Below are positions 4,095-26,352 of a stretch of 64,000 nucleotides of DNA, in pieces. The stretch is from Candidatus Multivorans sp. (GTDB lineage Bacteria; Acidobacteriota; Thermoanaerobaculia; Multivoradales; Multivoraceae). Within the stretch, counting starts at the first letter, position 1; each line of letters starts with the position of its first letter. The notes under the pieces are model-generated. The model did not search any database and was not told the origin of the DNA. It saw only the letters and a list, made by a program, of their open reading frames with translations. Both the position numbers and the translations under genes were made by a program. The stretch covers positions 4,983,676 to 5,047,675 of the forward strand of contig OZ245033.1 of NCBI GenBank assembly GCA_965224025.1, read 5' to 3'.

Positions 4095-4202
4095 CGGGCT
4101 GCCAGTCTAGGAGTGTCCGCAGCGTTGTCGCTGCGCTGTCGCGCAGGGAACAGGCAGCGAGTAGCCAACGTTACAGCGGCGTCGTGGGTTCATAGAGTTG
4201 GC

Positions 4203-4358
4203 CGCGCTGGGCAGCGAGGCCGCGCAGGCACTGGTGTGTTGGCGCCCGACTAGGAGTTTGGCCCGGACCGTGATCGGCGCTCTGACGCTGGCGGCGCGGC
4301 TTGTGTCGCGACCCCGTATGCAAGATTGAGCTTTTCGCCGCGGTCTCTGCCCAGCGCG
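4203..4358 (+). ncRNA. Putative IS110 bridge RNA core in the left end
   Basis: 4203-4224 pairs with 4339-4358 and encloses CTAGGAGT (4250-4257) and ATGCAAG (4318-4324), which match the element junctions. Confidence 0.6.
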
Positions 4359-4391
4359 ACGATTGGATTCCACATCTACGGGAGGCAGGGG

Positions 4392-5711
4392 ATGGCAAAG
4401 CGGAAGGCGGAGCGTCTGGAAGTCGTTCACCCGGATTGCGCCGGTGTGGACGTAGGCAAGCGCAAGCACTACGTGGCGGTGGCCCCGTCGCGTTTCGAGC
4501 GGCCGGTGCGCAATTTCTCGTCGTTCACGGAGGACCTCGAGGCGATGGCCTCGTGGCTTCAGGAGTGCGGCGTGCGTGAGGTGGCGCTGGAGTCGACGGG
4601 GGTGTACTGGATTCCGGTGTTCGAGGTGCTGGACCGGGCGGGGTTCGAGGTGCATCTGGTGAATCCTCGGGCGACCAAGCAGGTGAGTGGCCGCAAGAGT
4701 GACGTTCTGGACTGCCAGTGGATCCGGCAGTTGATGAGCTACGGGCTCCTGCGCGGTGCGTTTCGCGCGCCGGACGAGTTGTGTCCGCTGCGTTCGTACA
4801 CGCGGCAGCGCGCCCAGTTGGTCCGCGACCGCAGCCGCGCGGTGCAGCACATCCAGAAGGCTCTGGTGCAGATGAACGTGCAGTTGGACAACGTGCTGAG
4901 CGACATCATGGGCAAGACCGGCCAGTTGATCGTGCGCGCGATCGTCGCCGGCGAGCGCGACGGCGCGGCGCTGGCCCGTCACCGGGACGGTCGCTGCAAG
5001 GCTGGTCCGGCTGTGATCGCGGCGAGTTTGCAAGGCAACTGGCGAGACGAGCACCTGTTCGCTCTGGGCCAGGCGCTGGCCCGCTACGACATGCTGCAAG
5101 GCCAGATCGAGATGTGCGAGAAGCGCATCGACGCCGAGCTCGACGGTCTGGCCCAAGACGGCGTCGAGGACGCGCCGCCGCCCGGTTCGAAGGCGCGCGA
5201 GCGCGCCCTGCGGAAGCGGCTGCATCGCATGCTCGGCGTGGACCTGGTCGCCATTCCGACGGTCGGCGTCGAAACCGCGCTGACCTTCGCCGCTGAGATC
5301 GGCCCGGACCTGTCCCGGTTTCCCTCGCAGGGCAACTTCTGCTCGTGGCTGTGTCTGGCTCCACCGACCAACATCAGCGGCGACAAACGGCTGAACGGCC
5401 CTCCCGTGAAGCAGACCAACCGGGTCGGCCAGGCGCTGCGCCAAGCCGCCACCACAGCCCGCAACAGCAAGACCGCCATCGGAGCCTCTCACCGCCGGCG
5501 TCTCCAGCACATGGAGAAGGCGAAGGCCATCAAGGCCACCGCTCATCAACTCGGCCGACTGATCTACGCCATGCTGACCCACGGCGAAGAGTACGTCGAG
5601 CGCGACCTCGCCGAAATGGAGGCCGTCCGACGCGAACGACAAATCAGAAACCTGCAGCGTCAGGCCCGCCGCCTGAATCTGGCTCTCGTGCCGACCGAAC
5701 ATGCCGCCTGA
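4392..5711 (+). CDS. IS110 recombinase/transposase
   Basis: GVDVGK, ALESTG and KSDVLD (DEDD RuvC-like), C-terminal ISGDK serine; GGAGG RBS before ATG 4392. Confidence 0.95.
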   Translation: MAKRKAERLEVVHPDCAGVDVGKRKHYVAVAPSRFERPVRNFSSFTEDLEAMASWLQECGVREVALESTGVYWIPVFEVLDRAGFEVHLVNPRATKQVSGRKSDVLDCQWIRQLMSYGLLRGAFRAPDELCPLRSYTRQRAQLVRDRSRAVQHIQKALVQMNVQLDNVLSDIMGKTGQLIVRAIVAGERDGAALARHRDGRCKAGPAVIAASLQGNWRDEHLFALGQALARYDMLQGQIEMCEKRIDAELDGLAQDGVEDAPPPGSKARERALRKRLHRMLGVDLVAIPTVGVETALTFAAEIGPDLSRFPSQGNFCSWLCLAPPTNISGDKRLNGPPVKQTNRVGQALRQAATTARNSKTAIGASHRRRLQHMEKAKAIKATAHQLGRLIYAMLTHGEEYVERDLAEMEAVRRERQIRNLQRQARRLNLALVPTEHAA

Positions 5712-5778
5712 ATCGCGCAACCTGCGCTGCCAACAAGGAACCCCTACCCGTTTGTTCCATGCAAGACTGCGCAGGCTC

Positions 5779-7155
5779 CTACGGATCGGCGCCCATGCGC
5801 TTGCCGCGCTGCACTTGGCCCCAGCGTTCGAGGCGCAGGTGGGTGGCCCGCCCTGTCTCCGCATCCACCTCGAAGATCGCGATCTGCTCCCGGTCGCGGG
5901 TGCCGACGAAGCGGTGCTCCCCGATCGGCACCGTCTCCGTGCCGGCGATCATCAGCTTGCCGTCCTTGACCAGGACGGGGATCGGGTTCCGGCCGAAGTC
6001 GTAGATGCCGGCGTAGCGCTTCAACTCGTCCGGTTCCAGTGTCACAGCGGCGTGTTCGGCCTCCTGTACGCCGAGGACCGCGCGGGCGATTCGGGCCTCG
6101 AGCGGGCCCGGTTCGGCTGACGTGCTGTTGCTGAGCACGGCGACGACCAACTCGTCGTCCGGGTACCAGGAAAGCTGGCTCAGGAAACCGTTGATTCCGC
6201 CGCCGTGGGAGATCTTCCGGTGACCCGCCATCTCGCCGACCTGTAGGCCGAGGCCGTAACCGATCTCCTCGCCGCCCGGCAGCCGGCGCCTGGTGGTCAT
6301 CGCGCTGAGGCTGTCCGGCGTCACGACATCGCCGGCGCCGAGCGCCGTGGTCCAGCGCGCGAGGTCGAGAACGCTCGAGCCCAGGGAGCCGGCCGAGAAG
6401 GGCAGCAGCATGGAGAGCGGTTCGTCGTTCAGCAGGACGCCGTCTTCGACCCGGTAGCCCTCGGCACGGTTGGGGACGATCGGATCGTTGTAGAGGTAGT
6501 GCGACTCCCGCATTCCGAGCGGGCGGAAGAACGTCTCCCGGAGGTACTCGGCGTAGCTGCGGCCGCTCGCCTTCTCGATCAGCAGGCCGGCCAGGTAGTA
6601 GCCGGAGTTGCTGTACTGGTAGCGGTCGCCGGGCTCGAACTCGTAGGGCTGGGCCGAGAACAGTTCGATCATCTGCTCGTGGGAGAGGTCGAGCCGGCTC
6701 TGCTCCCAGAACGACGGCATCTCGGTGTAGCCCTTGATTCCCGAGGTGTGATCGAGCAACTGCCCGACCGTGATGTGGAACTCGCCGACCGGGTAGTCGG
6801 GGAAGTACTTCGCGATCGGCTCGTCGAGGGTGACCTTGCCCGCCTCGGCCAGCTTCAGAACCGCCGCGGCCGTGAACTGCTTGGTGACCGAGCCGATCCG
6901 GTAGACCGTGTGCTCGGTTGCCGGCACCCGGTTCTCGACGTCGGCGAGGCCGTAGCCCTTGGCGAGGATCAGCTCGCCGCCGGACTGGACCGCGACGGAG
7001 ATGCCAGGCGTCTGCGTGGCCTCCATCGAGTCGGAGACCAACTCGTCGATTCGTTCGAGCAGAGCGCCGCGGTCGTCGCCGGCGGCCGACCCCGGCGCCG
7101 GAATCGATGTGAGCGCGGCGAGGAAGACGGGCCCGGCCCTTGATCTGATTCGCAT
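5779..7155 (-). CDS. Serine hydrolase, beta-lactamase class C-like family
   Basis: SVTK, YSN and HGG motifs; signal-like N-terminus. Confidence 0.9.
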   Translation of the reverse strand: MRIRSRAGPVFLAALTSIPAPGSAAGDDRGALLERIDELVSDSMEATQTPGISVAVQSGGELILAKGYGLADVENRVPATEHTVYRIGSVTKQFTAAAVLKLAEAGKVTLDEPIAKYFPDYPVGEFHITVGQLLDHTSGIKGYTEMPSFWEQSRLDLSHEQMIELFSAQPYEFEPGDRYQYSNSGYYLAGLLIEKASGRSYAEYLRETFFRPLGMRESHYLYNDPIVPNRAEGYRVEDGVLLNDEPLSMLLPFSAGSLGSSVLDLARWTTALGAGDVVTPDSLSAMTTRRRLPGGEEIGYGLGLQVGEMAGHRKISHGGGINGFLSQLSWYPDDELVVAVLSNSTSAEPGPLEARIARAVLGVQEAEHAAVTLEPDELKRYAGIYDFGRNPIPVLVKDGKLMIAGTETVPIGEHRFVGTRDREQIAIFEVDAETGRATHLRLERWGQVQRGKRMGADP

Positions 7156-9129: not shown

Positions 9130-11001
9130 GTGCGCGAAGGCCCGCAGGTGGCGCCCGCAAGCGGTGCGACCCTCGCCGTCTGGCGGCGCGACTCGACAAT
9201 CGGCCTGTTGTCCGGTGCGCTGCTGTTCGGGGGGCCCATCTCGATCGCCCACCTTCTGCACAACCGGGTCGAGAGTCCGGTCACGGCGCTCGCGTCGCTG
9301 GTTCTGTTTGCGCTGCTCTACGGCTGCGGAGTCGGAGCGGCGCTCGGCGCTTTGGGTTGGCTGCTGCGGGTGGCGGCGTTCCCCCGCTTCAGGCTTACCG
9401 GCGACCCGGCGGTCTTGGCCGCCTGCCTCCTGAACCAGGCCTTCTTTCAGCCGGTCGTCTTCTATGGCCTGACCTACGAGCAGGTTCCGTGGTTCGAACC
9501 GCGGAGTTTCTCGGGCATGGCGCTGTTCCTGATCGCCGCCGGCATCCTGCTGGGCAGCGTCGTCTGGCTGGCGACGCTGGCGGTCGCCGCCGGTATCCGG
9601 CGTCTTGCGGCCGGCGGGCAGTTTCGGCGGCTCCTGGCCGCTGGCGCGGCAGTCCTCGCCGCCGCGCACCTGGCCCTGCCCATCGCCTTCCGGCTCTCGC
9701 CCGAGGCCGAGCCGGCGCCGTTCGACCCGGCAGCTCTGATCGCTCACCCCGGTCAGCCAGTTGCCCTCCTCGGCTTCGACGGCTTGGACCCGGACCTTCT
9801 TCTCGAGCTGATCGACGACGACCAACTGCCGAACCTTGCGGAGTTCGTCCGCGAGGGCGCATTCGGCCGTCTCGACACGTTCCCCGGCGCCAACTCGGCC
9901 GTGATCTGGGCCTCGCTCTACACCGGAGAGTCGCCCGCCCGCCACCGCGTCCACGACTTCTATCGCGTGCGCTTCCCCGGCGCCGGCGCCGGCCTGTTCC
10001 CGGTCCACCGGACCTACTTCAAGGAGCTGATCGATCGTCTCGCCTGGGCGCCGGGGATCTCGCGGCGCTTCGTCAACCGCCTCGATCTGCGCTCGCCGCC
10101 GATCTGGGAGATCGCGGACCGGGCGGGTGTCCCGACCGCCGTCGTCGACGGCTACTTCTACTCCTTCCCGGCCCAGCCTCAGCTCGATCCGGGAAGCCGG
10201 CTGCTCGCCTACGGCTTGAACGACGCCCTGGCGAGTTCCGGGAACGCGGATGCTTCCCCTGGGAACGCGGGCGTCCGGCCCGCATCCGGGTCCGCAGACC
10301 CGACCCTCGCCTGGTTCGCCCAGCCGCCCGATCTGCCGTCAGAAATCGAGGGCGCGGCGGCCGGGCACGCCGACCTCGCGTGGCAGAGCCGGGCGGCCGT
10401 GGCGCTGCTCGAGCACCGCGCGCGCCGCGGCCAGACGCCGCCCCGTTTCTTCAGCCTCTACACCCACGAACCGGACACCGTCTCGCACCAGCGCTGGCGC
10501 TGGGCCGAGCCGGAGCGGTTTCCCTTCGTGTCGCGCCCCGGCATCGACGAGCACGGCCAGTCGGTGGCGGACGTCTACCGGCGGATCGACGCCCTGGTCG
10601 GCGAGCTGCGGCGCGCCCTCGGCCCCGAGACGGTCTTCGTGATCGCTTCGGACCACGGCCAGTCGCCGACCTTCGTCCATCGTCTCTACACTCAGCACCG
10701 GCACGGCCCGGACGGCGTCCTGCTGCTCCACGGGCCGGGCGTCCGTCGGGGTCACCGGCTCGACAGCAGCCACGTGCTCGACGTCTTCCCGACCGTCCTG
10801 GCGCTGCTCGGTTTGCCGGTGCCCGCCGATACCGAAGGCAAGGTGCTGGATGGCGCGTTCGAGGCGGCGCCGGGCGCTGGGTCGCGGGCCCGGATCCCGA
10901 CCTATCGCGGCGCCTGGGAACCCGTCGACACGGTGGGAGGTACGGATGTCGAGCGGACGCGGCAGGAGATCGAGCGTCTAAAGGCGATGGGGTACCTGTA
11001 G
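9130..11001 (+). CDS. Membrane-anchored alkaline phosphatase-superfamily protein
   Basis: N-terminal TM helices, GFDGLD, ASDHG, C-terminal ERLKAMGYL. Confidence 0.75.
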   Translation: MREGPQVAPASGATLAVWRRDSTIGLLSGALLFGGPISIAHLLHNRVESPVTALASLVLFALLYGCGVGAALGALGWLLRVAAFPRFRLTGDPAVLAACLLNQAFFQPVVFYGLTYEQVPWFEPRSFSGMALFLIAAGILLGSVVWLATLAVAAGIRRLAAGGQFRRLLAAGAAVLAAAHLALPIAFRLSPEAEPAPFDPAALIAHPGQPVALLGFDGLDPDLLLELIDDDQLPNLAEFVREGAFGRLDTFPGANSAVIWASLYTGESPARHRVHDFYRVRFPGAGAGLFPVHRTYFKELIDRLAWAPGISRRFVNRLDLRSPPIWEIADRAGVPTAVVDGYFYSFPAQPQLDPGSRLLAYGLNDALASSGNADASPGNAGVRPASGSADPTLAWFAQPPDLPSEIEGAAAGHADLAWQSRAAVALLEHRARRGQTPPRFFSLYTHEPDTVSHQRWRWAEPERFPFVSRPGIDEHGQSVADVYRRIDALVGELRRALGPETVFVIASDHGQSPTFVHRLYTQHRHGPDGVLLLHGPGVRRGHRLDSSHVLDVFPTVLALLGLPVPADTEGKVLDGAFEAAPGAGSRARIPTYRGAWEPVDTVGGTDVERTRQEIERLKAMGYL

Positions 11002-11061
11002 CGATCGGCTGACCACGAAGTGGTCGCCGACCTTTGGCCGGCGCGTGTTTCTGGCCGCCTT

Positions 11062-11157
11062 AGTCGGTTAGTGCGAGAAACCGTGCGAGTTGTGCGAGAG
11101 TTAGTGCGAGAAAGGGACGGGTAGATGCGGGTGGATGCGGGTAAATGCGGGTGAGTG
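11062..11157 (+). repeat. Left-end repeats of the phage-like element
   Basis: TTAGTGCGAGAAA at 11068 and 11101, GTGCGAG at 11083 and 11092, then four 10-bp CGGGTRRRTG units (11118-11157). Confidence 0.9.
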
Positions 11158-11390
11158 TGGCGCGGCTCGTGGCGGCGCTCAGCGACGCAGGAGTGGTGGA
11201 CCCGGGACGGGTGGCGCAGGAGCTCGGACGACGGTGCGCCGGCATGCGCGTGCCAACCGAGGCGGCTGTGGAGCGCACCGTGACGGCGGCCGAGCGGTCA
11301 GAGCTGGCGCGATGCGTGGGGAGCGCCGAGGAGCTGGAGGACGCGGCGGGAATCAGTCGGCGCCACGCGAGGCGACTGAAAGGGGTCTAG
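11145..11390 (+). CDS. Small HTH protein, possibly a Mor/C-like activator
   Basis: C-terminal AEELEDAAGISRRHARRL HTH-like segment; Mu-like context. Confidence 0.4.
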   Translation: MRVSVARLVAALSDAGVVDPGRVAQELGRRCAGMRVPTEAAVERTVTAAERSELARCVGSAEELEDAAGISRRHARRLKGV

Positions 11391-12402
11391 CGCTGATCGC
11401 CACTGCGCCGGCATCGAGCATGGCCGCGAGGCGGGGGTCCCAGTCCGGGTCCGCATCGAGCCGCTCGACGCAGCTCGGGTGTAGCGACTGAACGGCGGCG
11501 CCGGTGTGCGGCACAGGGCGACAGAACGGCGGCCACACCCGATAGAGGCCGCCCCGCGAAACGCCGATCGGCGCCAGCGGGTCTGGGTCGGGATGGTCAC
11601 CCTCTCGAGGGTGGACAGACAGGCCGGCCGCCGCGATGTGCTGCCACATCCAGTTCAGGGCAATGTCCGACAGCCCCCGCACGGCCCGGCCGCCGCCGAC
11701 GTCGCTGTGCACGCCGGGAAACCAGACCTGGTGCAGTTGCTGTCGCGCCCCCGGCGCGTTGCGCCAGAGTGTCGGACGGAACGGGCGACGGGCTTCGTCG
11801 ATCGCGAGGGCGTGGCATGCGATCTCGACGTGGTCGCCCAAAGAGACGTCGTGGAAGCGGTGGCGTCCAGCAGACAGCCAGTCCAGCGGCTCGGGGACGC
11901 CCAGAGCTCCGACAGTGTCCCAGACTCCGACAAATCGAATCGGGGCGTGCCGGCCGAGCAATTGTTCGGCGACCGCCATTCGCTGTTTGCCGGATCGATA
12001 TACCGCCATCGCCTGCCGGGCGACTCGCCGAGAGTCGGCCGCTCGCTTCCTCGTCGCCCTGTCCCACTCGGGGACGGAGGGGATGCCGCACAGTCCGATC
12101 AGGCCGGCGAGGCTGCGGGCGGTATAGGCGCCGCGGCTGTAGCCGAGAGCCCAGATCCTGTCGTCCGGATCCCAGACTTCAACAAGCCAGGCATACGCAT
12201 CCTCGACGTTTTTTTGCAGCCCGAGGCCGAACGCGCCGCCGCGGAAACGGTCCCATCGACCCGTGCCGACGCCGGGGTCGTAGTACGTCTTGACGCCTTG
12301 CTTGACCGCATGCCAGGTGCGGCAGACGTTCGTCGGCCGCACCGCGTCCGCCTCGTTCCAGGTCCCGTCGAACAGGAGCACCAAGTCTGACCCGTGCCTC
12401 AC
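11353..12402 (-). CDS. DUF2235 alpha/beta hydrolase (Tle1-like phospholipase domain)
   Basis: DGTWN, YDPGVGT, GYSRGA, GVWDTV, HALAIDE, WFPGVHSDVGGG; GTG start overlaps the upstream TGA. Confidence 0.88.
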   Translation of the reverse strand: MRHGSDLVLLFDGTWNEADAVRPTNVCRTWHAVKQGVKTYYDPGVGTGRWDRFRGGAFGLGLQKNVEDAYAWLVEVWDPDDRIWALGYSRGAYTARSLAGLIGLCGIPSVPEWDRATRKRAADSRRVARQAMAVYRSGKQRMAVAEQLLGRHAPIRFVGVWDTVGALGVPEPLDWLSAGRHRFHDVSLGDHVEIACHALAIDEARRPFRPTLWRNAPGARQQLHQVWFPGVHSDVGGGRAVRGLSDIALNWMWQHIAAAGLSVHPREGDHPDPDPLAPIGVSRGGLYRVWPPFCRPVPHTGAAVQSLHPSCVERLDADPDWDPRLAAMLDAGAVAISARPLSVASRGAD

Positions 12403-12806
12403 CGCCGCCCCTTCCAGGCACGCAAGCCTTCGATGACCCTGGTCGCCTCTGCGCTCGTGCGGACGCTTGTCAGCCGTTGGCTGCGCTCCAGCCACGTCGC
12501 GAGCGCCGCCTCGGTCAAACCAAGCTCGGCGCGCAGGTCGTCGATCAGGCGCCGCTGAGAAGCGGTTACCATACGGACGACGCCGGCCGGGAGTCGGGCC
12601 GGCGGCCGGCCCCTCGGCCGGCGCTTCGGCTTGGGCACGCCCAGGCGGCGCAGCAGTTCGCTGGCGTCGCGGATGTTCAGATCCGTGCAGCTCTTCGCGC
12701 CCCACCCCTCGTCGAGCATCCGTTCGTAGGTCTCCCTGTCGACGCCGGCGGCGCTCCTGGCGGTGTGGATGGCGCGAACCTGCGACGCCGTGATCGGGGC
12801 GGTCAT
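12399..12806 (-). CDS. GemA/DUF1018-like protein (Mu gp16-like)
   Basis: RAIHTARSAAGVDRETYERML...SCTDL...ATRVIEGLRAW pattern. Confidence 0.75.
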   Translation of the reverse strand: MTAPITASQVRAIHTARSAAGVDRETYERMLDEGWGAKSCTDLNIRDASELLRRLGVPKPKRRPRGRPPARLPAGVVRMVTASQRRLIDDLRAELGLTEAALATWLERSQRLTSVRTSAEATRVIEGLRAWKGRR

Positions 12807-12807
12807 C

Positions 12808-13263
12808 TCACCCTTCCCGTGTTGCCTCGCTGTCGCCCGCCTCGCTCTCGTCAAGCGCGTCGAGCTTTGCCTGGTGTGCGACATCGATCCGGGTTACCGC
12901 TTCCTCGTAGGCGCCGCCGAGCGCCGCCTTGCCCGCGGTCCACCGCTCATTCCATTCGGAACGGACGCCGGCGATCGCTTTGCCGCGGTTTCGGTTCCAC
13001 TGGTGGGTGAAGGCGAGCTCGTCTGCTCGGTACTTTGCCGCGGCGGCACTTCTCGCCTCGCCGCGCTCGCGTTCGAGGTCGCGGATGCGTCGTCGGCGGA
13101 CCCATTCCCGGTCCTTTTTGGCCCGCTGCTCGAGGTAGGCGCGGTAGCGCTCGGCTTGACGTCGCCGGATGGCTTCGCGCTTGGCCTGGTAGTCCTTGGC
13201 GGCCTGGTAGCGCTCGTGGAAATCGGCCCGGATGCGGTCCGCGTCTTCGTGCGTGACCACCAC
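12808..13263 (-). CDS. Hypothetical charged helical phage protein, possibly 5'-truncated
   Basis: Stop lies 1 bp from the gemA-like start; no clear RBS. Confidence 0.5.
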   Translation of the reverse strand: MVVTHEDADRIRADFHERYQAAKDYQAKREAIRRRQAERYRAYLEQRAKKDREWVRRRRIRDLERERGEARSAAAAKYRADELAFTHQWNRNRGKAIAGVRSEWNERWTAGKAALGGAYEEAVTRIDVAHQAKLDALDESEAGDSEATREG

Positions 13264-13264
13264 G

Positions 13265-13351
13265 GACGAGCAGCCCGTGCCGCTGATCGCGCCGGCGACT
13301 CCGACGCTGACGCGCGCCGGCCTGCGCGGCTTCCGCGGGGCGATCGGATGA
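13265..13351 (+). pseudogene. 3' remnant of a gene upstream of the tail terminator (Mu gp36-like C-terminus?)
   Basis: DEQPVPLIAPATPTLTRAGLRGFRGAIG* with ATGA overlap on the next start; no convincing own start. Confidence 0.45.
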
Positions 13352-13830
13352 GCGAGGGCCGCATGTCCCTGGACGCCTGGCGCGAGCGTCTCGAGACGTT
13401 CCAGCCCCGGAGCCTCACGGTGGACGGCGAGGCGCCGCCGCCGCTCGGCGAGGACGTGGACATCGACGCGACGACGGTCGACGAGGCCGCCCGCGCCGGC
13501 GCCCGCCGCGACGGCCTGTGGCTGGTCTGGTCTGCGGAGACCGGGCCGTCGAGCGACATCATCGGCAGGACGAGGCAGTTGCGCCGCGCCGAGGTGGTCG
13601 TGCTGTCCCGCGTGGCCGATCGCCGCGCCGGCGCGCCGTTCTCGGCCCAGGATGCCCTGGACCGGCTGCGGGCGCGAGTGGACGCCGCGCTGCTCGGCTG
13701 GATCCCTCCGGGCGCGATGACGCCCGTCGATTTCGTGCGCGGCGCAGCCCTGGCGCCGGGCAAGGACGGCGCCGCCTGGTGGGCCGACGCCTACGCCGCC
13801 GACCGCCTAGTTTCCGCGGACGGAGCATGA
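13348..13830 (+). CDS. Phage tail terminator / Gp37-like protein
   Basis: LRARVDAALLGWIP...WWADAY; lies immediately before the tail tube gene. Confidence 0.65.
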   Translation: MSEGRMSLDAWRERLETFQPRSLTVDGEAPPPLGEDVDIDATTVDEAARAGARRDGLWLVWSAETGPSSDIIGRTRQLRRAEVVVLSRVADRRAGAPFSAQDALDRLRARVDAALLGWIPPGAMTPVDFVRGAALAPGKDGAAWWADAYAADRLVSADGA

Positions 13831-13843
13831 GGAGGAGGATGCG

Positions 13844-14854
13844 ATGACGTTGTTGGCGATGAAGAAGGTGTTGCTCTACAAGCCGGAGGCGGCCTACGGC
13901 GTGGCGCCCGCCGCCTTCACCGGCGCCGACGCGATCGAGGTGCACGAGCCGGATCTGACGGCGCTCGACGGCGGCACCGTGAGCCGGGAGCTGATGTGGC
14001 CGTATTTCGGGGCCAGCGACCCGGTCCAGGTCGACTCGCACGTGCGGCTGGCCTTCAGCGTGGAGCTGACGAGCGGGGGCGGCTTCACGCCCGCCACCGA
14101 GGCGATCTCGGCGCCGAAGTTCGGGGGCCTGCTCAAGGCGTGCGGGATGAAGGAGACGACCGGCAAGGCGGCCGTGGCCGACACCAACAACTCGAAAGTC
14201 GAGTACGCGCCGGAGACGAACGCCTCCGGCTCCTCGGTGACGCTGATCTGGAACATGGACGGCCAGCAGCACAGGCTGCTCGGCGCCCGCGGCACCTGGA
14301 CGCTGGAGTTCGCCAGCAAGGAAATCCCCCGGATCCGGTTCGAGTTCACGGGGCTATGGGCCTCGCCGAGCTCCATAACCCAGATCGACCCGGGGGGCTA
14401 CGTCGGCTGGCAGGAGGCCGTCGCGGGCTCGAACGCGGCGTCCACGTTTTTGATCCACGGCACGCACGACCTGGCGCTCCACCGGCTGTCCGTCGCCCTC
14501 GGCGCGCAACCGGTGCACCGCGAGGTGGTGGGCGCCGACAACGACGTGCCGATCACCGGCCGCGAGACGACGGGCAGCGTGACGATGGACGCCGAGAAGC
14601 TGCTGGCCTGGAACCCGTTCCGCCTGGCGCAGAAGGCGACCAAGGACGCGCTGCAGCTCGCGCACGGCTTCACCGACTCGGCGAAGAGCATGCTCGCGGC
14701 CGGGAACCGCGGCAAGATCGTGGTGCTCGACGCCCCGCAGGTCGTGCTCTCCGAGCCGCGCTACGGCGACGACCAGGGCGTGGCCACGATCGAGGCGACG
14801 CTGACGATGGTGCCGGAAAGCGGCAACGACGAAGTGAAGTTGACGTTCCAGTGA
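13844..14854 (+). CDS. Phage tail tube protein (non-contractile)
   Basis: KPEAAYGVAP, LLKACGM, LLGARG, SGNDEVKLTF; GAGGAGG RBS. Confidence 0.85.
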   Translation: MTLLAMKKVLLYKPEAAYGVAPAAFTGADAIEVHEPDLTALDGGTVSRELMWPYFGASDPVQVDSHVRLAFSVELTSGGGFTPATEAISAPKFGGLLKACGMKETTGKAAVADTNNSKVEYAPETNASGSSVTLIWNMDGQQHRLLGARGTWTLEFASKEIPRIRFEFTGLWASPSSITQIDPGGYVGWQEAVAGSNAASTFLIHGTHDLALHRLSVALGAQPVHREVVGADNDVPITGRETTGSVTMDAEKLLAWNPFRLAQKATKDALQLAHGFTDSAKSMLAAGNRGKIVVLDAPQVVLSEPRYGDDQGVATIEATLTMVPESGNDEVKLTFQ

Positions 14855-14882
14855 GCGGACCCCCTGGTCGAGGAGGAATCGC

Positions 14883-15290
14883 ATGACGTTCAGGCTGGCC
14901 GACCCCGACGCCGTCTACGAGACGGCGGTCACGATCTCGGTGCCCGCTTCCGGCGGACCGGAGGAGCGGGAATTCACGGCGCACTTCCGGCTGCCGGCCC
15001 CCGCGGCCGTCCGGGCCGCGGCTCTCGAAGGCGACCCGCAGTTCATGCTCTGCGTCCTCGCCGGCTGGGACGGCATCGAGGGCCACGACGGCAAGCCGCT
15101 CGATTTCTCGCCCGCGAACGTCGAGAAGCTGGCCGGGATCGCCTACTTCGCGCGCGGCGTGGCCGCCGCTTTCGAGCGCTTCTCGCTCGGGCTGCCGGGA
15201 AAAACGCCCGCGCGGTCGGCCGGCGGTTCGTCGCTCGCCGCGGCCGCGACGACCGACAGGAAGACGCGCGGGCGTTCGGCATCGACGTAG
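14883..15290 (+). CDS. Tail assembly chaperone (gpG-like)
   Basis: GWDGIEGHDGKPLDFS motif; slippery G GGA AAA at 15197-15203. Confidence 0.8.
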   Translation: MTFRLADPDAVYETAVTISVPASGGPEEREFTAHFRLPAPAAVRAAALEGDPQFMLCVLAGWDGIEGHDGKPLDFSPANVEKLAGIAYFARGVAAAFERFSLGLPGKTPARSAGGSSLAAAATTDRKTRGRSAST

Positions 15291-15565
15291 GGGCTGTTGT
15301 CCGCGAGGAGCCGGCGTGCTGGGTGCTACCTTCGGCGTGGGACGCCGCGCGAGCGTTCTCGGCCTGCGCGACCCAGTGGCGGATCGGCCCTGCCGGCGGG
15401 CTGCTGGGCCTGGACTACGCGGGCGCCCGGGCCGCGGTGCGGGGCGTGACCGCGGACGGCCTGGGCAAGGAGGCGTCGGGCCGCTCGCTGCGCTGGCGGC
15501 GGGTATTCGAGCTGCTGCGCGAGATGGAGGCCGCGGCGCTCGACGCGCAGCCGCGGTGGCGGTGA
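15203..15565 (+). CDS. gpT-like / DUF1799 segment reached by -1 frameshift
   Basis: The -1 frame is open from 15203 and contains ATQWRIG...GLDY...LREMEAAAL. Confidence 0.75.
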   Translation, partial: NARAVGRRFVARRGRDDRQEDARAFGIDVGAVVREEPACWVLPSAWDAARAFSACATQWRIGPAGGLLGLDYAGARAAVRGVTADGLGKEASGRSLRWRRVFELLREMEAAALDAQPRWR

Positions 15566-15580
15566 CCGAGCCCGCCCGCC

Positions 15581-15697
15581 TCAGCGTTGCTGGTCGGCGG
15601 CGAACGAGAGGGCGGCGATGACGGCCCGGATCACCAGCGCGCAGGCGGTGCCGCCGATTACTGCCGCGTACAGCGTCATGATGACAAACCCCCACAT
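15581..15697 (-). CDS. Small antisense hydrophobic peptide (38 aa)
   Basis: MWGFVIMTLYAAVIGGTACALVIRAVIAALSFAADQQR fills the gap before the tape measure gene. Confidence 0.35.
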   Translation of the reverse strand: MWGFVIMTLYAAVIGGTACALVIRAVIAALSFAADQQR

Positions 15698-15713
15698 GGG
15701 GGAACCCTAGCAA

Positions 15714-18230
15714 ATGCCCGCTGAGTACCGCCTCGCGCTGCGCCTGACGGCCGACGCCAAGGGGTTCGTCGGCGCGGTGACCGCGGCGGACAAGCGAGTC
15801 GGCCGGCTCGCCGGGACGGTACGGCGGTCCAGCAGCGAGACAAAACAGGCGGCCGGCGCCCTGAAGCTGTACGGCGCCCAGGGCCAGGTGGTGTCGACGG
15901 TGTCGACGCGTCAGGCGGCCGCGGTCGACAGAGCGGCCCGGGCCGCCGACAGGGCAGGCAGGGCCTCCGCGGGAGCGGCGCGGCGCACCCGGGGCCTTGC
16001 TTCGGCGTTTCTCGCCGCGCATGGGCGGGCGATCGCCTACGGCCTGGGTCTGGGCGGCGGCCTGCTCGTGTCCCTTCGGCAGCTGGGGGGCGCGGCGCTG
16101 GACGCGGCGGAAGCGAACCGGGAGCTCGACAACCGCCTGCGCCTGGTGACGGAGTCGGAGGCTGAACTCGCGGCGGTGCGGTCCCAGCTCCTGGACGTCT
16201 CGGTGCGCACGCGGACGGCGATCGACGGCACGGTGGTGACATACAGCCGGCTGGCGCTTGCGCTCGAACATCTCGACCGCCCCGCGTCACAGAGCGTCCG
16301 CGTGGTCGAGCTGCTGAACAAGCAGCTCGCGATCGGCGGCAGCGTGGGCAGCGAGGCGCAGGCCGGCCTGATTCAGTTTGCCCAGGGCCTGGCCTCGGGC
16401 AGGCTGCAGGGCGACGAGCTGAGGTCGGTGATGGAAAATCTTCTGGGCGTGCAGCAGGGGCTGATCATCGGCTTCCGGAAGCTCAGGGAATCGGGCCAGA
16501 TCGACATCGACGTGACGAGGGCCAATTTGCGTGAGTTGGCGTCCGAGGGCGAGATCACCGCCGAGCGGCTGATTGACGCGGTCCTGGCGTCGGGTGAGTG
16601 GACGGACAGGACGTACGAGAGCGTCGAAGCGGGCATCAGGTCGAGCTTCAGGGCCCTGCGCAACGAGATCCGGGAGAGCTTCCGCGAGGGGCTGGAGGAG
16701 ACGTCGGGGTTCGTGGCCGCGACGGTGCAGCGGATGACGGAGGGTATGTCGCGGGCCAGGCGGATTCGGAGCCAGACGGTCAGGGTGTACGAGCTGGACT
16801 CGGATCCGCTGACGGCCCGTGACCTGATCGGCATGGACGAGCAGGAGATGCGCGACCTGGTTGGCGGCTTTGTGCGCGAGCTGGAGGCCGTGGCCGAGGG
16901 GGCCGGCGTGACCGCCGACTCCATCATCGGCCGCCGGCTGGCCGCGCTGCTGCAGCCGCGGATCGACATTCTGCGGGAGGAACTGCAGCGCGCCGGCGAG
17001 ATCGATCCGTCCGGCGCCGCGGCGCCGCCGGATCCGTCCGCGGAGCCGGATCCGGAACGCCTGCGCGAGATGTTGCGTCTCGAGCGCGAGTTCGCGACTG
17101 CGCGCGAACGGATTCAGCTCGACTACCAGGACCGCGTGAGAAAGATCGAAGCGGTGGCGGATGGCGAGCAGCGCGAGCGATTGCTCCGGCGCGCGGAGAC
17201 GATCCGGAGCGAGGGCATCGCCAGGCTGGGGAAAATCGCTGACCGCGAACGCGAGGCCCAGGAGCGCGCCGCGGCCGCGGACCGCGAACGCGCCGACTCG
17301 GCGCAGGCGTCGGCCGCCGCGCTCGTGCTGTTGCGCGAGGAGAACGAGCGGCTGCGGCAGGGAGGACTGGAAGCCCTGAAGGTGATCGAGGAGGAGCGCG
17401 AGGCCCGCGAACTGCTGGCGCAGGTCCGCCGGGCGCACGCGGACGCCACGCCGCAGGTGCTCGCCGGCCTGGAGGCCGAGGCGCTGGCGGAGCGGAAGCT
17501 GACGAAAGAGTTGGAGGCCCAGGCGGAGTCGCGAAACGCCAGGATGCAGGCGTTCGTGGGCTGGATGTCCGCCGGGTCGGCCGCGTCCGGTGAGGCCGCG
17601 GGCGAGCAGGCCGACCTGGCGGGATCGCTCGGCGTGGCGGACGAGGCCCTGCGCCGAATCACGGGCGGCCTCGGGCAGTTCGCGAACGCGAACGCCAAGG
17701 CTTTCCGGCTGCACCAGGCCGCGGCGTTGGCGAGCGCGGCGGTTTCAACGGCCAAGGGCGCGACGGACGTCCTGGCAGACACGACGATCCAGCCGACGTG
17801 GCTGCGGCCGGTGATGATGGGCCTGATCCTGGCCGCCGGCGCGGCGCAGATCGCGGCGATCCGTTCACAGAGGCCCCCCCAGGCGTTCGCCTACGGCGGC
17901 GTGATCGACCGCCGCGCGGAGTTCTCGTTCGGCGGCGGCCGCCGCGGCCTGGCGGGCGAGGCGGGCCCCGAGGCGATCCTTCCCCTGCGCCGGCTGCCGA
18001 GCGGCCGCCTGGGCGTCGGCGCCGCCGCCGGCGGCCGCGCGCCCGTCTTCGCGCCGCGCGTCGAGGTGGTCGTCCAGGCGCCGATGGGCGGCCGCCCGGA
18101 CGACGCCGCCCTGTGGGGCCGCGAGGCGGGCCGCGGCGTGGCGACGGGCCTGCGCCCGCTGTTCCTCGAGTTCGTGCGCGAGGAGCGCCGCCCGCTGGGC
18201 GCGCTCGACCCGGACGGAGACTCCGTCTGA
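15714..18230 (+). CDS. Tail tape measure protein
   Basis: GLASGRLQGDELRSVMEN N-terminal domain; C-terminal FAYGG...GEAGPEAILPL; Ala-rich helical. Confidence 0.92.
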   Translation: MPAEYRLALRLTADAKGFVGAVTAADKRVGRLAGTVRRSSSETKQAAGALKLYGAQGQVVSTVSTRQAAAVDRAARAADRAGRASAGAARRTRGLASAFLAAHGRAIAYGLGLGGGLLVSLRQLGGAALDAAEANRELDNRLRLVTESEAELAAVRSQLLDVSVRTRTAIDGTVVTYSRLALALEHLDRPASQSVRVVELLNKQLAIGGSVGSEAQAGLIQFAQGLASGRLQGDELRSVMENLLGVQQGLIIGFRKLRESGQIDIDVTRANLRELASEGEITAERLIDAVLASGEWTDRTYESVEAGIRSSFRALRNEIRESFREGLEETSGFVAATVQRMTEGMSRARRIRSQTVRVYELDSDPLTARDLIGMDEQEMRDLVGGFVRELEAVAEGAGVTADSIIGRRLAALLQPRIDILREELQRAGEIDPSGAAAPPDPSAEPDPERLREMLRLEREFATARERIQLDYQDRVRKIEAVADGEQRERLLRRAETIRSEGIARLGKIADREREAQERAAAADRERADSAQASAAALVLLREENERLRQGGLEALKVIEEEREARELLAQVRRAHADATPQVLAGLEAEALAERKLTKELEAQAESRNARMQAFVGWMSAGSAASGEAAGEQADLAGSLGVADEALRRITGGLGQFANANAKAFRLHQAAALASAAVSTAKGATDVLADTTIQPTWLRPVMMGLILAAGAAQIAAIRSQRPPQAFAYGGVIDRRAEFSFGGGRRGLAGEAGPEAILPLRRLPSGRLGVGAAAGGRAPVFAPRVEVVVQAPMGGRPDDAALWGREAGRGVATGLRPLFLEFVREERRPLGALDPDGDSV

Positions 18231-18574
18231 TGGCCACGCCGTCGCTGCCCACCGCGCCGCTGTCCGTCGGCTCGTCGGTCCAGGTCGAGCCGCTCGTGGA
18301 CCGCCTGCGCCTGGGCGACGGCCACGTCCAGGACGCCGCCCAGGGCGTGAACGCCCTGGCGCGCTCGTGGCGGGCGGTGTGGAAGGCGCTCGACCAGGCG
18401 GCGCACGACACCCTGGTGGACTTCTTCGCCGCCCGCGCCGGCCACGAGCGGTTCCTGTGGCAGTCGCCGCTGGACAGCGCGCAGCGCAAGTGGGTCTGCG
18501 TCTCGTGGTCGACGGAGATCGTCAGCAGCGGCGTGTACAACGTCCAGGCGACGCTGGAGCGGCGATATGCCTGA
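18230..18574 (+). CDS. Minor tail protein, lambda gpM-like
   Basis: LGDGHVQ...GVN, FLWQSP, WVCVSW; position after tape measure. Confidence 0.85.
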   Translation: MATPSLPTAPLSVGSSVQVEPLVDRLRLGDGHVQDAAQGVNALARSWRAVWKALDQAAHDTLVDFFAARAGHERFLWQSPLDSAQRKWVCVSWSTEIVSSGVYNVQATLERRYA

Positions 18575-19277
18575 TCTCGCCACCCGCCTCGACCTCGACG
18601 CCGGCGCGGTGGTCGACCTGTTCGAGATCCAGACCGACGCGAACGCGATCCTGTTCCGGTTCTCGCCCGGTCCGCGGGCCGACGGCACGGCGATCCTCTT
18701 CGGCGGCGAGCGCTACGACCCCGTGCCGATCGCCGTGTCCGGGCTCGGCTTCGGCGGCGGCGCGCGCTCGAGCGGCGGCTCTCCCCGGCTCACCCTGGGC
18801 CGGCTCGACCCGGTGATCACCGGCGATCCGCGCGGCGACGACTGGCTGGGCTACCGCCTGCGCTGGCGACAGACACTGGCCCGGCATCTCGACGGAGCGG
18901 CCGACGCGGACAGCGCGGCGTACCACGAGGAGATGCTGTGGATTGGCCGGGAGCGCTCCCGGACCCGCGCCGAGGTCGAGTTCGAACTCACCACGCCGCT
19001 CGAGCTGGTCCACCTGCACCTGCCCCGGCGGCAGGTGCTCCGCGAGTACTGCCCCTGGCGGTACCGCCTCTGGACCGGCGCGTCGTGGGACTACGCGAAG
19101 GCGCAGTGCCCGTACCGGGGCGCGGCGCGGTTCGACGTCTCGGACAATCCGACGTCGGACAGCAGCCAGGACAACTGCAGCGGCACGCCTGCCGGCTGCC
19201 GGCTGCGTTTCCCGGATCCGGCGGCGCTGCCCTTCGGTGGTTTCCTGGGCGTCGGCGGCGCCGCGAGGCCGCGGTGA
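18567..19277 (+). CDS. Minor tail protein, lambda gpL-like
   Basis: LPRRQ, four Cys (CPWRY, CPY, CSG, CRLRF), LPFGGF. Confidence 0.9.
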   Translation: MPDLATRLDLDAGAVVDLFEIQTDANAILFRFSPGPRADGTAILFGGERYDPVPIAVSGLGFGGGARSSGGSPRLTLGRLDPVITGDPRGDDWLGYRLRWRQTLARHLDGAADADSAAYHEEMLWIGRERSRTRAEVEFELTTPLELVHLHLPRRQVLREYCPWRYRLWTGASWDYAKAQCPYRGAARFDVSDNPTSDSSQDNCSGTPAGCRLRFPDPAALPFGGFLGVGGAARPR

Positions 19278-20104
19278 GCCACCTGGTGCCGGCGGCCGCC
19301 GACAGCGAGGCGCGGCGGTACTTCGAGGCGGCCTGGCCCGACGAAGCTGCGGGCTACGTGGCAGCCGGCGGCGGCTTCCGGCCGCTCTCCGCGTTGACCT
19401 CCGGAGGCGGCCACGTGGAGCACGTCTGGCCGCCCCGGGACGAAGCGGCGGTCGTCCTGCATTCGCATCCCGGAGGCGAGCGGTTCCCGTCCAAGGCCGA
19501 CATGACGGCGCAGGTGGCGATGGGCCTGCCGTGCGGCGTCGTGCCGGTGGTCGGCCCGGAGCTCGCCGAGGAAGCCCTGGGCGGCGCCGATCCCGGCAGC
19601 CGGCCGCCGATCGATCTCGCGGCCGCGTACGCGGCGCGCCGCGCCGGCTCTCCGCGCGCCGGTGGCCCGTCGCTGTTCGCCCAGGGGCCGGCGGCGGCGA
19701 AGCTGCCGGCCGCGAGTCCGCCCTGGCAGGGCCGCCCGTGGCTGCACGGAGTCTCCGACTGCTGGACGCTGGCCGGCCACTGGCTGCGCGCGCAAGGCTT
19801 CGACGTGCCGCCCATGGCCTACGGCTGGGGCTGGCAGCGGCGCGGGAAGGACCTGTTCCTGGCCGGCCTGGCGGAGGCCGGCTGGGGGGTGCTGGCGCGC
19901 GGCACGGAGCGACCCGGGGATCTGCTGCTCATGCGGCTGCGCGCGCCCGTCGTGGAGCACTGCGCGGTGCTGCTGGAGGGCGGCCGCATCCTGCACCACC
20001 CGGGCTCCCCGGCGCCGGACGCCCCGTGCGCGCTGTCCCGGCGTGAGCCGCTGGGGCGGTGGGGCCGCCACGTGGCACTGGCGGTGAGGCCGCGGCCGGC
20101 ATGA
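19274..20104 (+). CDS. Tail assembly protein, lambda gpK-like (JAB/MPN + NlpC/P60)
   Basis: HSHP...PSKAD, GVSDCW, HCAV...ILHH. Confidence 0.88.
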   Translation: MSHLVPAAADSEARRYFEAAWPDEAAGYVAAGGGFRPLSALTSGGGHVEHVWPPRDEAAVVLHSHPGGERFPSKADMTAQVAMGLPCGVVPVVGPELAEEALGGADPGSRPPIDLAAAYAARRAGSPRAGGPSLFAQGPAAAKLPAASPPWQGRPWLHGVSDCWTLAGHWLRAQGFDVPPMAYGWGWQRRGKDLFLAGLAEAGWGVLARGTERPGDLLLMRLRAPVVEHCAVLLEGGRILHHPGSPAPDAPCALSRREPLGRWGRHVALAVRPRPA

Positions 20105-23100
20105 TCGTCCGTGTCCAGGGCGCGCCCGAACTCCGGGAGCTGCTGGGCGCAGACGAGGTCGACGTCGGGGAGGCGCCGTCCGCCGGCGCCGGTCTGCGGG
20201 CGCTGTTCGAGGTGCCCGGCGCCGAGGACCTGGTGCGCGCCGGGGCCTGGTCGGTCCGCGTCGACGGCCTGGAGGTCCAGGAGGCCGCCCTCGGCGCTGC
20301 CCTGGCCCGCCCGGCGCGGTCGCTCGAGCTGCGCGCGGCGCCGACCGCGAGGTTCGAGGGTCCGGCGGCGGTGGCGCCGTGGGTGTACTGGACGATCGTC
20401 GGCGCGACCCTGGCCGCGACCGCCTACTCCATCGCCACGCTGCCCTCGGTCCGCGACTACGCGGACCGGGAGGAGCCCGGCAACCGGCAGCGGCACCTGT
20501 TCAGTGGGCCGGTGAACTCGGTCGAACAGGGCGGCCCCGTGCCGCTCGTCTTCGGCACGCGGGTCCGGGTGGGGTCGGTGGTCGTCTCGGCCTCGACGTC
20601 GTCCGACCTGGACGAGACGGGCGGCGGCGGCGACGGCGGCATCATTCAGCTTCCGCAGCCGAGTCGGCAGATCGGGGGTGGCGCCGGCCGGCCGGAGACG
20701 CACTCCGTGTTCGGCGCCGTGCTCTCGACCGTGCGCACCGAGGAGCCACCCGACCCCGGCCCCCAGGGTCCGGACTTGCCGGATCCGGACGACGACGACA
20801 CCGGTACGGATCCCCCGGGCCCCGGCGACCGGCAGCCGGGCGACCCGCCGACTCCGGACCGCTACGCGCCGGCGAAGCTGGACGGCGTGAGCCGGGTCCG
20901 GATCGTGGAGATGCTGGGCGAGGGGAAGATCGAGGGCTTGCGCGACCCGGGCGTGGTGCTGACCAGGTCGCTGATCCTGAGCGGCGCCGCGGCCGCCGGC
21001 GAGGCGGTGCTGAAGGTGTTCGGATCGCCTGATGACGATCTGTACGACCTGGATGTCTCCGCGGACGACGACGGAGACGTCCTGGAGACAGCGGCGTGCG
21101 CCGGCTGCAAGGTCCGCATCGACCGAGGGGCCGCGTGGCTTGCCGGCGCGGTCCAATCGGTCACTGCGGCGGGGAAGATCCGGTTCCTCAGGGAGGGCGG
21201 CGCCGGCGCGCTCACCGCGGGCGCCGGAGCGGCGATCTCGTTCCCGGATGAGGAGAATCGCCTGGCCAGCGTGTTCCTGGACGGCACGCCCCTGAGGACG
21301 GCGGCGGGCCAATACAATTTCAGCGGCGTGGTCGACCTGGAGTTGCTGCGCGGCGGCGCTGGCCAGACGGGCCTGGACACGATCGACGCAGTCGAGACGC
21401 AGCAGCAGGTCGACGTCGCGCTGGGAACGGCCGCGACGTCGCGGAACAGGGCCGGCCAGGCAGACGCGGTCCGGGTGACGCTCCGCGCCGCCGCGCTGTG
21501 GCGCGAGCTCGACGGGGACATCGCGCCGGCGCGGGTCCTGGTCGAGATCACGATCGGTTCGAAGACCTGGGGCTACCGACTGCAGGAGAAGCGCACGTCG
21601 CCCGGCGAGGTGAGCGTGGTGCTGCCGCTGGGGTCGGAGACCAGCGTCAAGGTGCGGCGGACCACCGTTCCGGCGGCGGACCCGGACACGGTGCGCGACG
21701 AGGTGCGCTGGGCGTCGGTCACCTGGATCAGGCATGTGCGCCAGACCTACCAGTCGTCGGCCCTCGTGGGCCTGACGCTGGACGCGGACCGGATGGGCGG
21801 CCGGTTGCCGGCGCGGAGCTATGAGATCGCCGGCCTGGAAGTGGGAATTCCGTCCGGCTGGAATCGGCGCACCCGAGCCTATCCGCCGGTCTGGAGCCGG
21901 ACCATGGCGGCGGACCCGGCCGCGGTCGACAATCCGGCCTGGATCCTTTTCGGGCTGCTGCGCAACGTCGATTGGGGCATCGGCGCCGAGCCGGGCATGC
22001 GCGCGGCGGCGTGGGCGGCGCGGGACGCGTTCTACGAGTTCGGCCGGTGGTGCGACCAGAGCGTGGCGCTCGGCGCCGAGTCGGCGATGGAGCCGCGCTG
22101 GCGCTTCAACGCGGCGTTCAGCCGCCGGATGAAGGCCAGGCGGTTGCTGAAGCTGATCGAGAGCGCCTGCCGGTGCGGGATCGAGTTCCAGGGCGGCCAG
22201 CTGAGCCTGTACTGGGACGCCGACGCGGACCCGGCGGCCATGCTCGGCGACGCGAACGTGCAGGACGGCGAGTTCGAGTACGGGTCGCGGGCGCCGGAGT
22301 GGCACGAGCGGGCGTCGGTGGTCGCGGTCACGTTCAACGATCCGGACGACGGGTTCCGGGCCTCGGTGGAGCTGGTGATCTCCCGGAACCTGATCGAGAA
22401 GTACGGCTGGCGCCAGCGCGACGTGACGGCGATGGGCTGCACCTCCCGCGGCCAGGCGCACCGGATAGGCCGGCTGCTGCTCTACGAGCAGGAGCACGAG
22501 GCGGAGACGTTCTCCTGCACCGCCACGTGGGACAACGCCCTTGTGCGCCCCGGCCAGGTCGTCCAGGTCGCGGACTCCGACGTCACGACGTCGCGGACGA
22601 CGCGGCGCGTGGTGGAGGCTGCAGCCGTCGACGGCCGGCTCGTGCTCGATCAGGCCGTGAGCGCCGCCGACGCGGCGCTTATCCGGTCCCTGTGGGTGCG
22701 TCGCCTCGAGGGCGAGGCGTCCGGGGATGCCAGGGGCCGCAAGGCCGGCCTCGCGCAGTACCGCACGGCTGACGGCTACCGGTTTGGCGCCGGGGGGGCG
22801 ACGTGGGGGCTGAGCGTCTCGCGGGCGGGCGGCACGGCTGTGCCGCTGCGCAAGGTGCAGGGCGTCGTCCAGATCGAGCTGGCGACGGCCGGCCGCAAGC
22901 CCCTGCTGTACCGCGTGACGGAGGTGCGGCGCGTCGACACGATCCGCTACCGGATCTCGGGCCACCGCCACCAGCCCGGCAAGTACGGCGTGGTGGAGAG
23001 CCGGCGCGCCCTGGGGTCTCCGGAGAAACGAATTTCCACGGGGCTCAAGCCGCTGAAGGCAGTCACCCTGCGCGAGGAGGACTACGAGGACGGCGCGCTC

Positions 23101-26246: not shown

Positions 26247-26352
26247 CTGTCGTCCTCCACCGCAGTGGGTCTCGCGACCTTCGACCTCGAACCGCGACTC
26301 ACGCCGTTCCCGCTGGCAGCCGGGGAATCGCCCGCAGGCCGACTGCACAGCG

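Follow-up and report, generated by a model that had tools for sequence, protein, structure and literature searches.

A 64,000-nucleotide stretch of genome G000, referred to here as the window (C1:4983676-5047675 of an assembly with three contigs, 5.14 Mb, and 67.6% G+C), contains a 15,355-bp mobile element at positions 11062 to 26416. We propose, with a probability of roughly 80%, that this element is a non-autonomous, internally deleted derivative of a Mu-like transposable siphophage and that it was moved in trans.

Two Identical Copies and a Three-Base-Pair Duplication

The left junction of copy 1 (positions 11055 to 11113) includes the triplet CTT at 11059 to 11061, as evidenced by the junction letters and a search with the joined flanks. 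CTT recurs at 26417 to 26419, where an interrupted REP repeat resumes. When the flanks of copy 1 are joined with a single CTT, they match 3 sequences elsewhere in the genome exactly and 10 with at most 3 mismatches, and the upstream context of these sequences is similar. Joining the flanks on the assumption of 0, 1, 4, or 5 duplicated bases yields 0 matches, and the assumption of 2 yields 1. The original prediction, which held that CTT is duplicated and that the joined flanks restore intact repeats, is borne out by these matches.

Copy 2 is 100% identical and inverted. It enters the window right end first (61731 to 64000, minus strand), spans the start and end of contig C1, and continues at C1:1-13083. 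The triplet ATG lies at its near end (61728 to 61730) and again on the far side at C1:13084-13086. Before the far end was located, it had been forecast to read ...AACCGACT followed by ATG, and this is the sequence found there. Copy 2 splits an IS110-family transposase gene, the 3' part of which occupies 60624 to 61730 on the minus strand (PF01548, positions 59 to 155 of 155; PF02371) and has no N-terminus on the window side. In all nine of the intact IS copies with alignments reaching the junction, exactly 3 bases are shared by the two 400-nt flanks of copy 2. Thus, both insertions were compared with uninterrupted paralogues, and both show a target duplication at unrelated sites.

In the orientation of the element, the triplets are CTT for copy 1 and CAT for copy 2 (ATG on the plus strand of the window). 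That CAT stands at the equivalent position in copy 2 had been noted from the window alone, and it is now found on both flanks. Identical copies bear different triplets, which means that the triplet comes from the target and that the boundary is unable to slide. An earlier suggestion that it might slide within CTT is therefore set aside; the target duplication is exactly 3 bp and the junction is fixed.

The surrounding DNA contains other mobile and repeated sequences. The genome has at least 14 more copies of the IS110 family that match the flanks, and the region is rich in mobile DNA. A direct repeat at 4107 to 5864 and 58832 to 60640 (offset, 54,725) is 100% identical over 300 nt, shares its pattern of open reading frames (ORFs) over approximately 1.8 kb, and includes a minus-strand ORF of 585 to 602 amino acids; it probably represents two copies of another insertion sequence. 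At 54983 to 55279, eight tandem 27-nt units with 60 to 87% identity to a reference copy lie within a long ORF.

Architecture of the Ends

The left terminal inverted repeat (11062 to 11080, plus strand) consists of a 9-nt tip, AGTCGGTTA, and a first box, GTGCGAGAAA. The right terminus (26398 to 26416), read as the reverse complement, is ACTCGGTTC followed by GTGCGAGAAA. These 19-bp repeats match at 17 of 19 positions and differ at positions 2 and 9, in agreement with the 19-bp terminal repeats with 2 mismatches described at the outset.

With further GTGCGAGAA boxes, the left end has four in all and the right end three. On the left, four GTGCGAG(AA) boxes occupy 11071 to 11112 on the plus strand, with GTGCGAG cores starting at 11071, 11083, 11092, and 11104 (spacing of 12, 9, and 12); the same box is present at the ends of a related element in G026, a genome of the same genus. 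The right end (26353 to 26416, minus strand) carries three TTTCTCGCAC boxes that start at 26353, 26376, and 26398, at a spacing of 23 and 22, and ends in the terminal inverted repeat. Uneven spacing on the left and a regular spacing of 22 to 23 bp on the right had both been noted at the outset. With at most 1 mismatch, AGTGCGAGAA has 11 matches in the window, compared with a mean of 3.16 and a largest value of 9 across 100 shuffles, and 8 of the 11 fall in the three element ends inside the window. Moreover, when box clusters were sought together with the terminal 18-mers (at most 2 mismatches) across the 5.14-Mb genome, the four ends of the two copies were the only hits. A first box 9 nt from the tip and a terminal inverted repeat followed by several subterminal repeats constitute a Mu-type end architecture. 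The GTGCGAGAA boxes are presumed to be transposase binding sites.

Inside the left boxes are three direct repeats of the ATGCGGGT type, each approximately 10 to 11 nt long, which were read directly at 11118 to 11157 on the plus strand. This triple repeat, with a period of 10 to 11, sits between the boxes and a small ORF, and the G026 element has a similar triple at its left end. These repeats could serve as an operator or a host-factor site.

Gene Content

Reading rightward, the first gene candidate is a small inward-facing ORF of 81 amino acids (11145 to 11390, plus strand), which is supported by codon-position GC, shares approximately 41% amino acid identity with an ORF at the left end of the G026 element, and has a weak match to DUF7285 only. 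Two genes follow on the minus strand. One encodes a Tle1-like (DUF2235) alpha-beta hydrolase (11353 to 12405; PF09994, E 9.7e-69) that has chromosomal paralogues and is regarded as cargo. The other is a GemA-like gene (12399 to 12884; PF06252, E 9.1e-11), a marker of the Mu early region, the product of which shares 65% amino acid identity with the GemA-like protein of G026 by tblastn.

The remaining genes are on the plus strand. A 355-amino-acid ORF (12763 to 13830) has a tail-terminator domain within the final 110 residues; nothing matches its first 240 residues, which probably span a deletion scar. It is followed by the tail tube gene (13844 to 14854; PF18906), two small ORFs at the position of the tail assembly chaperones (14883 to 15290 and 15316 to 15621; phrog_569, with a DUF1799 counterpart in G026), the gene for the tape measure protein (15714 to 18230), and genes for the minor tail proteins M-like, L, and K (JAB plus NlpC/P60) at 17798 to 20104. 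An I-like region and J, the central tail fiber or tip attachment protein, form a single 1,893-amino-acid frame with internal 540-nt repeats (20059 to 25740). Downstream of J is an ORF of approximately 169 amino acids (25737 to 26246) that is supported by codon-position GC and has no family match. The lambda-type tail module is thus complete, and all its ORFs are open. The C-terminal part of J contains tandem repeats of 537 to 540 nt with 92 to 97% identity (24108 to 25183, mirrored at 62964 to 63875). These overlap matches to Ig-like/He_PIG and fn3 domains and constitute a duplicated receptor-side module.

Searches of the element with Pfam and PHROGs recognized no transposase, ATPase, head, or packaging gene, and searches with Pfam, PHROGs, NCBIfam, and PADLOC recognized no lysis or regulatory gene. 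The unassigned ORFs have no PADLOC or NCBIfam match. Among Mu-type accessory and morphogenesis genes, GemA alone is in the element; Mu F, G, and I, portal, gp36, and Gam-like genes were found in relatives only. Likewise, an encoded DDE transposase with a MuB-like ATPase is absent from the window element and present in its full-length relatives.

Relatives and the Cognate Transposase

At least two left ends and one right end of the 32.9-kb element of G026 are assembled, on contigs that break inside the element. Its tips are TGTAGAGTT on the left and ACTAGGGTT on the right (reverse complement), and the same box lies 9 nt from each tip. Genes for a Gam-like protein, a Tle1-like protein, a 551-amino-acid protein (P0001), an AAA_22 ATPase, GemA, and two unknown proteins lie on the strand directed toward the left end. 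In addition, the G026 element carries an HTH gene, Mu G, Mu F, a portal fragment, capsid-region genes, and the same tail module. In the window element, the Tle1-like and GemA genes are arranged in the other order, and so it did not arise from a G026-like phage by a single simple deletion.

P0001 has no Pfam match of its own. Across 29 homologues, residues D144, D241, and E277 are invariant, and a profile of these homologues matches retroviral integrase cores (E about 1e-5) and Tn7 TnsB; Pfam detects a weak rve domain in 4 of them and Mu-transpos_C in 2. An AlphaFold model of P0001 (pLDDT 83, pTM 0.61) was compared with known structures using Foldseek, which returned ShCAST TnsB (1.3e-14), IstA of IS21 (2.5e-13), Tn7 TnsB (5.2e-11), and the Mu transpososome (1.5e-9), with the top matches at 12 to 15% sequence identity. 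On the strength of this model, the cognate enzyme is predicted to be a distant DDE member of the MuA/TnsB/IstA group that works with an AAA+ partner, not a member of another recombinase class. The original prediction had proposed Mu-like ends processed by an atypical enzyme, to be sought in relatives that carry these ends. That search led to a Pfam-poor DDE transposase with a TnsB/IstA/MuA-like fold, encoded beside AAA_22 ATPase, GemA-like, and Gam-like genes in relatives with the same box.

Within the genus, 8 of 41 other genomes have a homologue of P0001, and a sample of 258 other genomes from the order has none. Homologues are also found in metagenome-assembled genomes (MAGs) labeled Holophagales, Thermoanaerobaculia, Vicinamibacterales, Binatia, and Gammaproteobacteria, as well as in Lamprocystis purpurea DSM 4197. 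Large libraries contain 113 clusters of transposase homologues at E <= 1e-5, and a search of 1.84 billion cluster representatives returned 241 representatives of the family at E <= 1e-30 and 820 at E <= 1e-10. Among the relatives, a search for the left end of the G007/G009 prophage did not locate it, and a tail cluster in G025, which has no transposase match, showed no recognizable ends in two motif screens.

P0001, the query that finds the eight genus genomes, has no match in G000 by genome search or tblastn (E < 1e-3). Neither the G026 ATPase (tblastn) nor the profile of 29 transposase homologues matches G000. PF02914 (Mu DDE_2) has no match in G000 either, but control genomes were also silent, making this result uninformative. 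Because a transposase homologue is absent from both the element and the genome, the gene content indicates that the window element is non-autonomous. In addition, the two copies are identical and share the same internal structure, implying that the enzyme was lost before the last transposition and would therefore have been needed in trans.

Several searches were directed at a full-length element with A(G/C)TCGGTT tips. A pattern search of 61 relatives' genomes found none, the matches being unrelated or limited to the box. The whole element DNA, searched against 42 genus genomes, gave outside G000 only partial matches of 64 to 79% identity and three stretches of 66 to 73 nt with 87 to 93% identity; the 73-nt match, in G064, was considered as an element end and turned out not to be one. 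A metagenome scan returned at least 119 matching stretches, and none of the 80 loci screened had a convincing further box. A double-box pattern gave 14 matches in viral contigs, none of which is an end of this family.

Duplications and Tips Across the Family

Six of the eight family insertions for which both flanks were read carry 3-bp duplications. In addition to the two copies in the window, these include the G026 element, which has the triplet CAC and flanks that together rebuild a REP, intact at approximately position 26600 of the window. That intact sequence, at 26553 to 26640, is a second REP type with a longer hairpin, and a homologous repeat is the target of the G026 element. In G300, a Vicinamibacterales MAG, two copies of a 13.8-kb element that are 99.99% identical (C1:~2795888-2809719 and ~5091093-5104924; L195-L200) have the triplets CTG and CTC, and both tips start with ACT. 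Considered alone, the G300 insertions fit equally well with a 1-bp duplication and a right tip two bases longer; such a reading is excluded for the window element only, because its identical copies would need differing tips. The G300 remnant has retained its transposase together with Mu F and part of the Mu I protease, and it has no tail genes. It is thus of the opposite type to the window remnant, with the enzyme kept and the tails lost.

The sixth duplication belongs to a second tail-only element in G000, located outside the window at C1:~2368581-2383337 (L030:2581-17337) between fabF and an aroDE/his cluster. GTG is present on both sides, as read directly without an empty site. One end of this element is TGTAGAGGC plus a box, and the other is AGTAGAGAA plus a degenerate box. 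Its genes are those for J, K, L, the tape measure, the tube, and the terminator, along with a Mu G-like gene and a 165-amino-acid ORF; transposase and head genes are absent. The locus is not conserved in other species. The DNA beside it (L030:2290-2552) is a multicopy repeat, as in G064, G035, G025, and G016, and pieces of approximately 200 nt and 60 nt recur many times within stretches of approximately 25 kb in several genus genomes. Judged by eye, the larger piece, of approximately 200 nt, resembles the 3' end of a tyrosine-recombinase gene.

Two single-copy prophages are without a matching triplet, namely, those of G030 (GAA versus GAG) and G033 (TTG versus CTC). Their ends were placed by box position and by divergence between relatives rather than by duplications and are less certain. 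Empty sites for these two prophages and for the second G000 element could not be reconstructed from G000 or from the genus genomes: the G030 flanks are 2.4 kb apart in G000, those of G033 fall in an intergenic stretch that varies, and the flank of the second G000 element is the multicopy repeat described above. The probability that a triplet matches by chance is approximately 0.02 per site, calculated from 68% G+C. The central base is A or T in all six duplications, versus an expectation of approximately 0.32 per site.

Across 17 ends of the family, the first two bases are TG in 8, AC in 7, and AG in 2; T is at position 3 in all 17, and the first box begins at position 10. AG tips occur only in the two G000 elements, and the termini of the window element are AG...GT, not TG...CA. 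Departure from TG...CA varies within the family, in that some relatives have TG at one end. The duplications are neither the 5 bp of Mu nor the 6 bp of B3-type phages. According to the original prediction, other insertions would show neither TG...CA ends nor 5- to 6-bp duplications, and copy 2 would have a matching triplet. The expectations for duplication length (3 bp in six of eight) and for copy 2 stood, whereas that for the tips did so in part, given TG at the ends of some relatives. By the inferred chemistry, AGT and ACT tips would place T, not A, at the transferred 3' end.

Proposed Origin and Alternative Explanations

We envision that a deletion removed the transposase, the AAA ATPase, and all head genes from a Mu-like siphophage, while the ends, the small ORF, the GemA-like gene, the Tle1-like gene, and the tail module were kept; the hydrolase gene would have been captured. 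After the deletion, the element would have been copied or moved at least once, giving two identical copies with their own 3-bp duplications at unrelated sites. The enzyme may have been supplied in trans by a full-length relative that is gone from the assembly or was never in it. Such a helper could have been an infecting phage that did not lysogenize, a prophage that has since been lost, or a prophage in part of the population. The enzyme itself would be a DDE transposase of approximately 530 to 550 amino acids that, with its AAA+ partner, joins 3' ends to target phosphates 3 bp apart, accepts TGT, AGT, or ACT tips, and acts on triplets with A or T at the center. Mobilization in trans is thus an inferred step.

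Other explanations question the insertions themselves. Copy 2 crosses the start and end of contig C1, as might an artifact of assembly or circularization, or it might reflect a segmental duplication. Both ideas are extremely improbable, since copy 2 has flanks of its own, two IS halves with a 3-base overlap in intact IS copies. Also, a short-read contig (X1 record 2, 10040-18020) crosses the left junction of copy 1; X1 and X2 are sequencing runs of one sample, possibly the source, and so are not independent support. Among the joints listed in X1 and X2, none crosses the element, and so no empty-site form was seen. A loose end at 26417 in these runs was considered as an empty site and looks like another REP copy instead. 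Contig depth in X1 and X2 is approximately twofold higher on the element than on its flanks, although depth is not copy number. A different challenge comes from the site of copy 1. Intact copies of this REP fold into two adjacent hairpins, and CTT comprises the last stem base and two of the three loop bases of the first, so that the original placement of the insertion at a hairpin tip was right. This REP type has about 93 copies and makes up only approximately 0.1% of the genome, and the G026 element is also inserted in a REP-type repeat. These facts would suit an enzyme that targets hairpins or REPs by IS110- or IS200/IS605-like logic, for which the triplet is a recombination core and not a staggered-cut duplication. 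We give this idea almost no credence. Copy 2 is inside an IS gene at a different triplet, in G026 the element sits on the 3' side of the stem of another hairpin and not at a tip, and the G300 elements and the second G000 element are outside that REP. Consequently, the copies do not share one defined hairpin position without a duplication, and triplets that vary from site to site fit a duplication rather than a fixed core. Since copy 2 is in an IS gene and the other insertions that were read are away from hairpin tips, the REP hairpin tip is probably incidental or reflects the survival of insertions in dispensable DNA, where surviving insertions would be expected to be enriched, and not targeting.

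Two further alternatives accept transposition and differ on what the element is. It might be autonomous by way of an unrecognized recombinase encoded by the 81-amino-acid ORF, the 169-amino-acid ORF, or the first 240 residues of the 355-amino-acid ORF, all of which lack family matches. However, none of these candidates is long enough to be a DDE transposase with DNA-binding domains, the relatives that share the box carry the 530- to 550-amino-acid DDE enzyme and its ATPase, and the small ORF coexists with a transposase in the G026 element; we consider this explanation very improbable. Somewhat better placed, yet still unlikely, is the idea that the tail-only cassette is the selected unit, either as a mobile tailocin or as a satellite that borrows a helper's transposase and heads and supplies its own tails. 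In its favor, one genome contains two different tail-only elements, each with both ends and a 3-bp duplication and without transposase or head genes, and the window element has all its tail ORFs open and is freshly duplicated. If true, head-less, transposase-less tail cassettes with working Mu-type ends would be a maintained life form, copied by a helper's 3-bp-stagger transposase, which would explain why one genome contains two different cassettes, one of them freshly duplicated without a resident enzyme. Nevertheless, no lysis or regulatory module was recognized in the element, other species do not have the second element at a conserved locus, and the G300 remnant kept its transposase and lost its tails. 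Moreover, prophage decay usually drops early host-killing genes and keeps harmless late genes, which also counts against selection for the cassette.

Comparison with Known Systems

TnsB of Tn7 and type V-K CAST and IstA of IS21 (PDB 7svw, 7pik, and 8b4h) are the best structural matches of the relatives' transposase model. Like the predicted enzyme, they have an AAA+ partner, and they bind several repeats per end; they are not phage-borne. Tn7 duplicates 5 bp of target DNA, and IS21 duplicates 4 bp or more. The closest laboratory counterpart of the window element is mini-Mu, which keeps both ends, has lost the transposase, and moves only when the enzyme is provided in trans. Unlike mini-Mu, the window element is natural and carries a whole tail module, and no helper was found in the genome. 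F-type tailocins such as pyocin F consist of lambda-like tail genes without head genes. The window element resembles them in its lambda-like tail module without head genes and differs in that transposon ends and target duplications bound the cassette and no lysis or regulatory genes were recognized.

The full-length relatives resemble Mu in having a DDE transposase and AAA+ ATPase, GemA, Gam-like, and Mu F, G, I, and portal homologues. Unlike Mu, the family has a transposase that is nearly invisible to Pfam, an early operon directed toward the left end, and a lambda-type, noncontractile tail. Multirepeat ends, multicopy prophages, and a short duplication at unrelated sites are shared with Mu, B3, BcepMu-type, and Leptospira phages, as far as the available text of a study of such prophages describes them (PMC8705779). 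According to that text, duplications are 5 bp for Mu and 6 bp for B3 and the Leptospira prophages; the 5- or 6-bp scar, a size of 36 to 39 kb, and transposition genes serve as features for finding such prophages; and TG...CA ends are a recognition feature with one exception, TA-TA (PMC8705779). The family described here differs from the Mu-type phages in the available text of that study in its 3-bp duplication and its TGT, AGT, or ACT tips. The exception is a subset of Leptospira prophages, which likewise move without TG...CA ends and the occurrence of which elsewhere is left open in that part of the source (PMC8705779). As described there, the TA-TA prophages have a 3'-terminal A and a 6-bp duplication (PMC8705779), in contrast to the AGT and ACT tips here, which would give a 3' T, and to the 3-bp duplication. 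Although the window element departs from three defining features of Mu-like transposable phages, namely, the 5-bp duplication, TG...CA ends, and a transposase of its own, it behaves as a deleted Mu-type prophage would. A literature search found no 3-bp duplication in a transposable phage and no transposable phage from Acidobacteria.

Implications

Given the 3-bp duplications, the varied tips, and the few and weak Pfam matches of this family, searches that rely on a 5- or 6-bp scar, TG...CA termini, or a Pfam-recognizable transposase could overlook such prophages and their remnants. The family also offers a natural test case for how transpososome geometry relates to stagger and for the reach of the terminal CA rule. 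The window also indicates that a 15-kb phage remnant without an enzyme of its own can still multiply.
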